Virus record (IMG/VR): IMGVR_UViG_3300023371_000094
Length of the DNA stretch: 64,000 nt
Strand: one strand, 5' to 3'
Origin: a virus
Taxonomy: Duplodnaviria > Heunggongvirae > Uroviricota > Caudoviricetes
Under the pieces are notes generated by a model. That model made no database searches and was not told where the DNA came from. It saw nothing but the letters and a program-made list of their open reading frames with translations. The position numbers and the translations under genes are program-made. Below, in pieces: positions 16,301 to 19,981 of this stretch; position 1 is the stretch's first letter, and the number at the start of each line of letters is the position of its first letter.

Positions 16301-17292
16301 ACCATCTCTATGTATATAGCGGTTGTCAGACCACTAACGGTAACGGCGCAAGGTTTGCGGATGCAATCACTCGTACTCTTCTTACGAGAACCAGAGCCAC
16401 TGCTACCAATGTACCGGTTACTCTCGGTGCGGTTAGATATGGTGACGGCGGATGCGACTATTACGCCAAGGGTATTATCCACTGGTGTAAGGTTTGGTAC
16501 GATGACCTTGGAGAAACCAATGCATACGAATTAGCATCTTGGTGTCGTGAGCCTTTGAGAATGGAATTCTGTGGTACGGATAGATACAGACTTGCAGGAA
16601 CAGGAACGAGCGCGAAAGCAAAGATTTCGCTTATAGCGAACAACCTGCTTGACGGTCGTGGATACTGGATGAACAGCACGAACACTAACGCAGGCGGTTG
16701 GGATGCGAGCTTGATGCGTACATTCTGTAATACGCGCCTTGTCAATGCACTTCCTATTCAGTGGCGTAACATACTTAAGACGGTTAAGATTAGCGCGAGC
16801 GCGGGTAGTCAGTCTACCGAGATTGTTATTTCGGAAGACAAGATTTACCTTGCAGCTAACAGAGAAGTCGGCGGTTATACAACCGAACCTTATGCGAGCG
16901 AAGGTACTGCTATCTCGTGGTTTACGAGCAATGGTAGACGTTTGAAATTCAGAGGTCGTATGGTCGAGGATGATGCTACCTTCTATAGCGCGGCAGATGA
17001 TCCCAGTTTGGATCCCGCGAATGACGTCAAAGAGGGAGATATTTGGATCAATACGAGCAATGACTCTATTGGTTATATGTACCTCACTCAGGCGGAATTG
17101 GATAAGTATAATCTAACCCCGAACTTTACGGCATCTATCGGAGGCGGATGGATTATTGCCAGTGGCTGGTGGGGGCGCTCTCCGTATGCGAGCAACTCCA
17201 CGCACTTTATGCTTGTCTACGGCTACGGTGGCGCCAGCAGCTACAACGGCGCGTACGGCGTCTATGGCGTGTGCCCCTGCTTCTCAATCTAA
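10387..17292 (+). CDS. Giant baseplate/receptor-binding protein (2301 aa): BppU-like N-terminal domain, Ala-rich coiled coil, poly-Gly linker, central CotH-like domain, C-terminal C-type-lectin-fold DGR variable region. Target gene of DGR-1.
   Basis: N-terminus [34 protein letters not shown] resembles the baseplate upper protein BppU_N family; [11 protein letters not shown] linker at nt 11341-11370; segment [34 protein letters not shown] resembles the CotH NxxxN..Y.Y...WDxDxxFG signature; the C-terminal 45 codons are the VR matching TR-1. Confidence 0.85.
   Translation: [2301 protein letters not shown]
17152..17287 (+). repeat. DGR-1 variable region (VR) at the 3' end of the giant RBP gene
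   Basis: 136-bp match to TR (18261..18396); about 23 differences, every one at a TR adenine (e.g. TR aac to VR ggc/tac/agc/cac; gag to ggg; aat to tat/ctt; tga to tgc); a hairpin ctcgac-ttcggt-gtcgag at 17314..17331 lies just downstream. Confidence 0.9.
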
Positions 17293-17436
17293 AGCGGATA
17301 GGCAACATATAAATTCTCGACTTCGGTGTCGAGCGTAAAATAAACAGCTATCAATTGGTGGCAAGCTATCAGAAATATCTGGTGGCTTGCCCACCAGTAA
17401 TGCTGTCATAAATAAGGAAGAAAAGGAAAATAAAAA

Positions 17437-18396: not shown

Positions 18397-18691
18397 ACAT
18401 TAAGTAGCTATGAATAAGAGTGAACGCTTTATCTATAAAGGTATGGATGAGAAGGAGAATATGACCATCTGTTAGGAATAACAGTAAATATTACATCTGC
18501 TTGTGTTAAAGCAGGTATGCTTTGATAGCATTCTCGGTTTATCGGGTGGATCGCTAACGTGCATGGATCAGTCATTGGTTATTGGACTGGTTTCTTTACA
18601 TACCCAGATAAACGCGCGATTGATATAATAACCGAACATAATAATCGACGAGAGGAAAATCGATATATTATAAGGATTTAAAAAGGTTTTT

Positions 18692-19981
18692 ATGGATAAT
18701 TACGGACGAATACAAGTAAGGATAGCCCGTGATAAAGCAAGGAGACGGGCAAAAAAGGAAAGAATGAACGCCGAATACGATAATTTTGACAAGGTTATCC
18801 GAGTGCAGAATTACGTTGAGGCATTGAACAAATGTCGGAAAGGAGTCGCTTGGAAAGGTACAGTTCAGGAGTATCTCCAGAATGGAGTCACTGAAATGCA
18901 CAAAGTAACGACAGCGCTTAAAAAGGGAGAGATTCCTAAGCTGGCGAGTAGTAGACGAATTGAAATCTATGAAAGAGGCAAGAAGAGAATTATTGTTCCG
19001 GTTACTATTAAAGATAGAATGACACAGCGCGTTCTATGCGACAAAGCGTTGACTCCCGTTTTATGCAGGTCGTTGATTTACGACAACGGAGCCAGTCTTG
19101 CAGGAAAGGGCGTAGAATTTACGCGCGACAGGCTGGAATTTCATTTAAGACGTGCCATTGCGGAATACGGGAACGATTTTCACGCTCTTGTTTTTGATTT
19201 CAAGAGCTTTTTCGACAGCATACCTCATCGAACTTGCTGGAAGGTTTTGAACGAACACTTCGAAGATGAGCGTATTAAGAAATTAGTTATGAACATAATT
19301 TGCTCCTATCAAGAGCCAGAGATAATGGAAATACAGGATAGGAGAGAAAGGGAAGAAAAGCTGAGGATATTACATAGCTTTCAAGGGAAGGGCATTTGCT
19401 TGGGAAGTCAAATATCTCAGGTGATGGCTTTATCCGTCCCCAGCAAATTAGATCATTTTATTAAGGATAAGATGCGCGTGAAGCATTATATCCGATATAT
19501 GGATGACGGAGTTATTTTCTCGAACGATAAAGAGTTCTTACACGAGCTTCGTGCGAAAATGCGCGAGGTGGCAACTGAACTCGGTCTTACGTTCAACGAG
19601 AGAAAGACTCGTGTCGTCAGAATATCCAGAGGCTTTACCTTTATGAAGGTAAGATACTGGGTGACATCAGAAGGGAAAGTAATAAAGAAGCTGACGCGCT
19701 CGGGCATCACACGAATGCGCCGGAAGCTTAAAAAGTTAGCACGCTTGGTAAAGAACGGAACGATAACACTTGATGATGTGTATAACTCAATGCAGTCGTG
19801 GGTAGCACATTCAAAAGTTGCAAGGTCGTACCACACTTTAAGAAGTATGCTGAGCTTATATTACAAGCTCTTTGGTGGGTATAAGTCCCACAGAAAATAT
19901 ACGAAACAAGGATGGGTTAAAAATGAAATTTTACAAAATGATAAATGGCGAGAATTTCGTTGGAATTGGAACGTCGCTTGA
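18692..19981 (+). CDS. DGR reverse transcriptase (RT-1)
   Basis: RT motifs including LGSQISQ (the DGR-specific SQ in motif 4) and YMDD (RYMDDGVIF); about 300 bp downstream of TR-1. Confidence 0.9.
   Translation: MDNYGRIQVRIARDKARRRAKKERMNAEYDNFDKVIRVQNYVEALNKCRKGVAWKGTVQEYLQNGVTEMHKVTTALKKGEIPKLASSRRIEIYERGKKRIIVPVTIKDRMTQRVLCDKALTPVLCRSLIYDNGASLAGKGVEFTRDRLEFHLRRAIAEYGNDFHALVFDFKSFFDSIPHRTCWKVLNEHFEDERIKKLVMNIICSYQEPEIMEIQDRREREEKLRILHSFQGKGICLGSQISQVMALSVPSKLDHFIKDKMRVKHYIRYMDDGVIFSNDKEFLHELRAKMREVATELGLTFNERKTRVVRISRGFTFMKVRYWVTSEGKVIKKLTRSGITRMRRKLKKLARLVKNGTITLDDVYNSMQSWVAHSKVARSYHTLRSMLSLYYKLFGGYKSHRKYTKQGWVKNEILQNDKWREFRWNWNVA

Follow-up and report, generated by a model that had tools for sequence, protein, structure and literature searches.

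A diversity-generating retroelement with a fused double Avd-like protein in the tail module of a probable gut Clostridia phage

Our study examined a 64,000-nt stretch of viral DNA (IMG/VR record IMGVR_UViG_3300023371_000094, Caudoviricetes; hereafter 'the window') and indicates that its tail module very probably carries a complete diversity-generating retroelement (DGR), designated DGR-1, of a type that is active in its lineage. The element comprises a target gene ending in a variable repeat (VR), an avd-like gene, a template repeat (TR) and the gene for a reverse transcriptase (RT), in that order. This reading is based upon a DGR-type RT, repeats that differ only at adenines of the TR, a target tip with a C-type-lectin (CLec) fold, an accessory protein that has the Avd fold in duplicate, covarying RNA helices, and turnover of the VR among relatives while the TR stays constant. 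It agrees with an initial annotation of the sequence, which had proposed a complete DGR mutagenizing the C-terminus of its target and had given the same gene order. DGR-1 is of a well-known kind, and the domain that carries its VR, DUF6273, has already been described from gut phages as a target of DGRs with a C-lectin-like fold (PMC10743442, PMC11792537). Its variant features are a fused tandem Avd, a longer RT, a divergent RT-2-like RNA and the presence of a second DGR next to it.

The repeat pair and its turnover among relatives

The template repeat TR-1 (18261..18395, plus strand) is 135 nt long, untranslated in place and rich in Asn codons, and the variable repeat VR-1 (17152..17286, plus strand) aligns to it without gaps at an offset of 1109 nt. 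Base-by-base comparison revealed 23 mismatches, every one at a TR adenine. TR-1 has 43 adenines, none of its 92 other positions differs from VR-1, and the probability that 23 random mismatches would all fall on the adenines is 1.8e-14. The initial annotation had described about 23 mismatches, all at TR adenines, within a 136-bp repeat. The adenine restriction was upheld, as realignment gave no non-adenine difference across the 135 nt, and the TR and VR peptides that it quoted are encoded as given, but the 136th base does not belong to the repeat. At this position (17287/18396) the VR has A and the TR has T, which is the first non-adenine mismatch and the point at which the repeat ends. Substitutions were concentrated in codon positions 1 or 2 (22 of 23), and TR-1 contains 17 AAY codons when read in the VR frame. 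In the window, 53% of TR adenines are substituted in VR-1, which is in line with the mutational density of ~50% reported for active DGRs (bioRxiv 10.1101/2024.11.15.621889). An unbiased same-strand scan of the surrounding +/-12 kb found no A-only repeats besides TR-1/VR-1, and a comparison of TR-1 with the entire window on both strands found no second VR.

Comparison with related contigs, here numbered L001 onwards, revealed how the two repeats differ among them. L001 and L002 are ~90% identical to the window over 3.7 kb, and their TR is identical at 142 of 142 positions (window 18258..18399, L001 2450..2591). Their VR differs from that of the window at 19 positions, all of them A-templated. 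L018, from a Eubacteriales metagenome-assembled genome (MAG), is 94.6% identical to the window over 14.8 kb and carries yet another VR (VR 5881..6015 and TR 6990..7124, corresponding to 17152..17286 and 18261..18395 of the window). The TR of L018 has a 2-nt non-adenine change (GT to CG at 18271-2 of the window) and the same change is found in its VR. This is a natural case of marker transfer, as faithful copying from TR to VR predicts. Across the window, L001/L002 and L018 the VRs differ at 34 of the 43 adenine positions, and none has a non-adenine difference from its own TR. The same behaviour was seen in two other groups, as L004, L005 and L006 share a TR and have two distinct VRs (that of L004 being the same as that of L006), and L007-L010 share a TR and have four. 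The A-only pattern was present in all 21 related loci with a detected TR/VR pair, with a single non-adenine mismatch, in L024. Between samples and relatives, therefore, VR alleles vary at A-templated sites with a constant TR, which is the behaviour expected of a DGR.

Two further observations were made on these contigs. The complete identity of the TR in L001/L002, against flanks of ~90% identity, means that the TR either is under strong purifying selection or was recently exchanged. One relative, L008 (8857..11000), is decayed: its target is truncated to 345 aa, its RT gene is deleted and a holin gene follows the TR region. It keeps the tandem Avd, the TR and the VR, and the two repeats differ by a 3-nt in-frame indel.

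Proteins and structured RNA of the cassette

The target gene (10387..17292, plus strand) encodes a 2301-aa protein with matches to Pfam BppU_N at residues 5-127 (E 1.2e-10) and DUF6273 at residues 2095-2301 (E 2.1e-14), as well as to tail-fibre families of PHROG. It follows genes for a tape-measure protein (295..4659), a Dit-like protein (4708..5490) and a Tal-like protein (5504..9853). Because of the BppU_N match and this gene position, the product is a predicted baseplate or receptor-binding protein of a siphovirus-type tail; the initial annotation had named it a baseplate protein. VR-1 occupies codons 2256-2300, at the 3' end of the open reading frame (ORF) and within the last ~45 residues of the DUF6273 domain (16669..17289, plus strand). 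A structural model of this tip matched CLec folds, among them those of TvpA (a DGR target of Treponema), of C-type lectins and of TaqVP, in agreement with the earlier proposal that the VR encodes a CLec-fold tip; a phmmer search of the target C-terminus against PDB sequences gave no useful match. The VR of DGR-1 is therefore placed as in other DGRs, in which the target gene carries it at its 3' end and the scaffold, CLec or Ig-like, tolerates variation.

RT-1 (18692..19981, plus strand; 429 aa) is, by its sequence, a DGR-type reverse transcriptase. It matched Pfam RVT_1 (E 1.1e-17) and the RT family phrog_1423 (E 2.9e-78), and its closest solved structure is 8ub7_A (E 3.9e-21), which is the RT in the DGR ribonucleoprotein of Bordetella; the match to a group II intron maturase was weaker (E 1.5e-9). 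The DGR signature [I/V/L]GxxxSQ is present as LGSQISQ, in which L237 aligns with I181 of the Bordetella RT (bRT), the arginine of the motif GKKRIIVP aligns with bRT R74, and the catalytic YMDD is kept. Roles for the signature and for bRT R74 and I181 have been described (PMC7826257). Both LGSQISQ and YMDD had been noted in the initial annotation. No DGR-RT model of NCBIfam scored above its cutoff for RT-1.

Between the VR and the TR lies a gene for a 264-aa accessory protein (17437..18231, plus strand), so that the cassette includes an accessory gene as DGRs do. Its structural model, built with 16 homologues, is all-helical and of good confidence (predicted local distance difference test score, pLDDT, 86; predicted template-modelling score, pTM, 0.83). 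Profile-profile comparison of its N-terminal and C-terminal halves gave a probability of 98% and an E value of 1.8e-12 over 117 columns, from which it follows that the protein consists of an Avd-like four-helix bundle duplicated in tandem. The C-terminal half is basic (pI 9.6), close to the average Avd pI of 9.5 (PMC5758913), and the N-terminal half is near-neutral (pI 6.75). Residues 148-263 gave a weak match to the PHROG family 'Avd protein of DGR' (E 0.0046). In the BFVD viral structure library single-length Avd-like proteins matched, each over one half of the model, and there was no full-length tandem match; a phmmer search against PDB sequences gave nothing useful. The Avd proposed in the initial annotation is thus present as an Avd-fold protein, but in the form of a fused tandem that sequence models do not see.

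This tandem Avd is a conserved family. An exhaustive profile search of a library of 1.84 billion representative proteins returned 274 cluster representatives (clusters at 50% identity), most of them 260-285 aa long, with some single-length proteins matching the C-terminal half only. Neither the protein of the window nor its 17 closest clusters matched a Pfam family. In every relative contig examined, except L008 with its lost RT, the tandem-Avd gene stands directly upstream of a TR and an RT of 417-430 aa, and in most the gene immediately before it has DUF6273 at its end. Previous work found avd genes to be 'of similar length' and reported one DGR with two avd genes (Wu et al.); in the literature that we consulted, no description of a fused or tandem Avd was found. 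The four-helix bundles of the Avd and S23-type (23S rRNA-intervening-sequence) family (PDB 4dwl, 2gsc, 2rld) differ from the DGR-1 protein, which fuses two bundles in one chain, has a near-neutral N-terminal half and is without a Pfam match.

The region from just 5' of the TR to the start of the RT gene is strongly conserved among relatives, and the spacer between them (18396..18691, plus strand) forms a structured RNA that covariation supports. In an alignment of 17 sequences, a seven-helix model of 51 pairs was paired in 94% of cells, with compensatory changes in 31 of the 51 pairs. Sliding the pairs by 1-3 columns reduced pairing to 34-48%, and none of 500 shuffles reached the observed value. 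Helix H0 pairs GGTTATAT (18248..18255), just upstream of the TR and 5 nt short of the homology, with ATATGACC (18459..18466) in the spacer; it is paired in 97% of cells, has compensatory changes in L003, L016 and L019, and is a candidate cDNA-stop duplex. Helix H1 is a TR:spacer duplex that joins the 3' end of the TR (18386..18400) to 18443..18457. The two helices bracket the TR, as H0 ends at 18255 and homology begins at 18258-18261, and a lone unpaired adenine, A18458, stands between their spacer strands. H1, A18458 and the 3' strand of H0 together form a candidate priming module (18386..18466). The remaining helices lie within the spacer: H2 (18469..18484), H3 (18495..18516), H4 (18517..18531), H5 (18532..18536 with 18649..18653) and H6 (18576..18583 with 18627..18634), all on the plus strand. 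A pairing of the spacer with both the TR and the sequence upstream of it is characteristic of DGR RNA, and in the Bordetella particle cryo-electron microscopy showed two neighbouring duplexes, in which the spacer is paired to the TR and to an upstream avd segment, respectively (bioRxiv 10.1101/2023.10.23.563531). In DGR-1 the duplexes are supported by covariation, and a role in priming would follow by analogy.

The spacer was also compared with the Rfam family RF03077, the RT-2 RNA (Weinberg et al. 2017), which likewise lies between TR and RT. It aligned over the full length of the model, including the long-range closing helix, with a score of 19.2 bits (E 0.026) where 40 bits are required for gathering, and as judged from this alignment it is a divergent relative of the RT-2 RNA rather than a member. 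The covariation-supported seven-helix model offers concrete, testable predictions of where cDNA synthesis is primed and where it stops, in a DGR far removed from that of phage BPP-1.

Homing signals, proposed mechanism and competing explanations

At the 3' end of VR-1 we identified a candidate initiation of mutagenic homing (IMH) site (17266..17292, plus strand), comprising the GC-rich 14-mer GGCGTGTGCCCCTG (17266..17279) followed by CTTCTCAATCTAA. The latter diverges from its TR-side counterpart (IMH*), ATTCTCATACATT, beginning with C in the VR and A in the TR at 17280/18389. The sequence therefore has the difference between IMH and IMH* after a GC-rich block that is typical of DGRs, and the candidate may function as an IMH by analogy with phage BPP-1 (PMC5758913). 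The initial annotation had cited this first difference, TR TGA to VR TGC, as an example of adenine mutagenesis, and this interpretation was rejected. In every related locus with a detected pair the VR reads CTG-C-TTC and the TR CTG-A-TTC (GGG-C/A-TTC in L025), whereas the other adenine sites vary freely across these loci. The last variable adenine of TR-1 is at 18372, and the fixed A18389 lies within H1. Because the C is fixed in relatives and A18389 is in a helix that is not reverse-transcribed according to the model, the A/C pair is not a product of mutagenesis and probably represents the uncopied first difference between IMH and IMH* after GGCGTGTGCCCCTG.

A hairpin or cruciform near the VR is an accessory feature of the DGR family and not a defining one. 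The canonical form has a GC-rich stem of 7-10 bp and a 4-nt GRNA loop, and lies 4-34 bp past the VR (Guo et al., PMC3240598). The initial annotation had placed a hairpin with a 6-bp stem at 17314..17331, about 25 nt past the VR. The stem exists, but the hairpin, CTCGAC-TTCGGT-GTCGAG with a 6-nt loop, is located at 17316..17333 (plus strand), 29 nt past the VR; its stability as DNA is at the level of shuffled sequence (z -0.94, 30 of 200 shuffles folding equally well) and it is poorly conserved. It was kept only in close relatives (L001, L018), and distant relatives have unrelated, longer hairpins there. It may be a terminator-like or target-site hairpin. A scan for promoters and terminators gave promoter-like matches below shuffle expectation and terminator-like matches on the minus strand only.

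Another hairpin, CTGGTGG-CTTGC-CCACCAG (17379..17397, plus strand), was found 92 nt from the VR, with a 7-bp stem, a 5-nt CTTGC loop and a DNA fold z of -2.9. Of 26 related loci, 20 contain a single copy of its motif, G[CT]GGCTTGCCC[GA]C, in which the loop is invariant and the stem covaries between GGTGG/CCACC and GGCGG/CCGCC. By analogy it is a candidate target-site (cruciform) element. The possibility that it belongs to the 5' untranslated region of avd was provisionally rejected, as in L016, the one informative locus, an ORF is inserted before avd and the hairpin remains at the VR end. An alternative and longer stem (17344..17407) has the same sequence as its 3' arm, and the z of the region 17287..17436 is -5.5.

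From these elements a mechanism can be proposed, in which the priming nucleotide, the start and stop of the cDNA, IMH function, the roles of the hairpins and the stoichiometry of the tandem Avd are modelled upon BPP-1. An RNA spanning ~18240..18690 would be transcribed, and its spacer would fold back on the TR, forming H1 with the TR end and H0 with the sequence just upstream, which would leave the TR bracketed. RT-1 and the tandem Avd would prime the cDNA in cis, and the primer would probably be the unpaired A18458, a candidate priming nucleotide by comparison with the TR:spacer duplex and spacer A56 of BPP-1 (bioRxiv 10.1101/2023.10.23.563531). RT-1 would copy the TR from a putative start at ~C18385 back to ~18256-18260, misincorporating opposite adenines, and the cDNA would replace 17152..~17279 of the VR in the target gene, with directionality provided by the GC-rich block and the diverged VR-side IMH. 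Up to ~17 Asn-templated codons would be recoded on the ligand-binding face of the DUF6273 tip, and the recoded 2301-aa BppU-type protein could have an altered host-receptor specificity.

DGR-1 resembles the BPP-1 system (mtd-avd-TR-brt) in its gene order, in a tail receptor-binding gene that encodes a CLec fold and has the VR at its 3' end, in an AAY-rich TR, in a GC-rich block followed by a diverged IMH/IMH*, and in an RT with [I/V/L]GxxxSQ and YMDD. The two adjacent duplexes that the spacer RNA makes, one involving the 3' end of the TR and the other the sequence upstream of it, are also shared, those of DGR-1 being supported by covariation. However, BPP-1 uses a 128-aa Avd protomer that assembles as a homopentamer, in contrast to the 264-aa fused tandem of DGR-1, and its RT has 328 aa, compared to the 429 aa of RT-1. 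BPP-1 RNA has the RT-10 motif (PMC5737381), whereas the ~295-nt spacer of DGR-1 is of the RT-2-like group. BPP-1 has an 8-bp/GRNA hairpin right after its VR, where DGR-1 has none, and its target is Mtd rather than a 2301-aa BppU-type protein. A conserved tandem Avd does not fit a model in which the Avd of the bRT-Avd-RNA particle is simply a homopentamer, and its study could reveal which Avd surfaces are really needed.

Several observations weigh against the reading of DGR-1 as a complete DGR of an active type. No canonical DGR hairpin is present downstream of VR-1, and the spacer falls short of the RT-2 gathering score. Three A-templated sites (17164-5, GG, and 17185, T) are identical in the window and L001/L002, although not in L018; selection, or a cDNA that does not reach far enough, could account for this. 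The evidence that the DGR-1 type is active in its lineage comes from differences between samples. In addition, the accessory protein matches neither a Pfam family at E <= 0.01 nor an NCBIfam family of relevance, and its assignment to Avd draws upon its fold, the weak PHROG match and synteny. Four-helix bundles are a common fold, and 3 kb downstream there is a gene for a canonical single Avd (Avd-2, 21112..21525), both of which would suit an explanation in which the 264-aa protein is not a functional Avd equivalent and DGR-1 either is Avd-independent or borrows Avd-2. With the duplicated fold and the conserved position between target and TR-RT on the other side, we regard this as highly improbable.

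It is also highly improbable that the cassette is a recently inactivated relic whose VR differences date from an earlier active period. Decay does occur in the family, as L008 lost its RT and has a truncated target while keeping the tandem Avd and both repeats. In the window, however, no ORF is shortened, YMDD and the signature motif are in place, the helices of the RNA are preserved, and the TR is 100% conserved against a background of ~90%. Moreover, L001/L002 and L018 are 90-95% identical to the window and have the same or nearly the same TR as it, and each of the three has a different VR. That the two repeats have no relation to the RT, being an ordinary duplication that diverged or a tract of gene conversion, has a negligible probability: the existence of a repeat is all that speaks for it, and it is effectively refuted by the A-only pattern (P ~2e-14), which recurs independently in 21 related loci with one non-adenine mismatch (L024), and by a strict directionality in which the TR is constant while the VR varies. 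A complete DGR, with the order target-avd-TR-RT, is the explanation that we favour.

A wider proposal is conceivable, though on balance doubtful. The fused double Avd may mark an undescribed DGR subclass of gut Clostridia phages and prophages, in which another assembly would take the place of the homopentameric Avd barrel and the neutral N-terminal and basic C-terminal bundles would divide RT binding and RNA binding between them. Such a DGR would be insulated, by its own RNA and IMH, from a canonical DGR with a single Avd and an RT-2 RNA located 1 kb away.

The second DGR and the phage context

Directly downstream of DGR-1 our study revealed a second, different and complete DGR (DGR-2). It consists of a canonical single Avd of 137 aa (Avd-2; PHROG Avd E 7e-8), a template repeat (TR-2, ~21560..21673), a spacer with full membership of the RT-2 RNA family (21678..21892, 125.5 bits) and an RT (RT-2, 21886..23046) that is 36% identical to RT-1. 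Avd-2, like the tandem protein, has no Pfam or NCBIfam family. The VR of DGR-2 (63946..64000, minus strand) lies ~42 kb away and is cut by the edge of the window; five mismatches, all of the A-only kind, are present in its visible 50 nt, and the last of them directly adjoins the point where the repeat ends. The DGR-2 target gene ends in DFRYNCASNRYAVAFGFCI followed by a stop codon. The twin arrangement was also found in L003, L004, L005, L011 and L013, and in L007-L010 there was no second RT within the stretch recovered. Two different complete DGRs that are neighbours, and of which each has an Avd type, an RNA and an IMH of its own, provide a natural case for the study of how cross-talk between DGRs is avoided.

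The Faecalibacterium prophages Lelie, CP11, Roos and Pioen and the tentaclin phages nd4/nd12 are comparable systems from gut Firmicutes, with a VR in the DUF6273 C-terminal part, a C-lectin-like fold and large tail proteins (PMC11792537, PMC10743442). They differ from the window in having one RT for one or two VRs, rather than two different complete DGRs that are adjacent. The closest relatives of the window were contigs of gut and rumen Clostridia, Ruminococcus and Lachnospiraceae MAGs, and a tyrosine integrase gene (23481..24668, minus strand) comes right after the block of tail, DGR and lysis genes. Because of this integrase and the Clostridia MAG matches, the window is probably from a temperate siphovirus-like phage of gut Clostridia. 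Neither a megablast search with positions 16000..21000 nor a tblastn search with the tandem Avd gave any match in the INPHARED phage collection, and this phage lineage is therefore not among the deposited phages.

A tail-fibre-like ORF with DUF4376 (19923..20666, phrog_1348) overlaps the 3' end of the RT-1 gene by 59 nt, and both the overlap and the synteny are kept in nearly all relatives. It is followed by a gene for a small membrane protein (20675..21100, PF06541). Elsewhere in the window, 12 tRNA genes were identified with Rfam at 56501..59019 on the minus strand, inside a long block of minus-strand ORFs.

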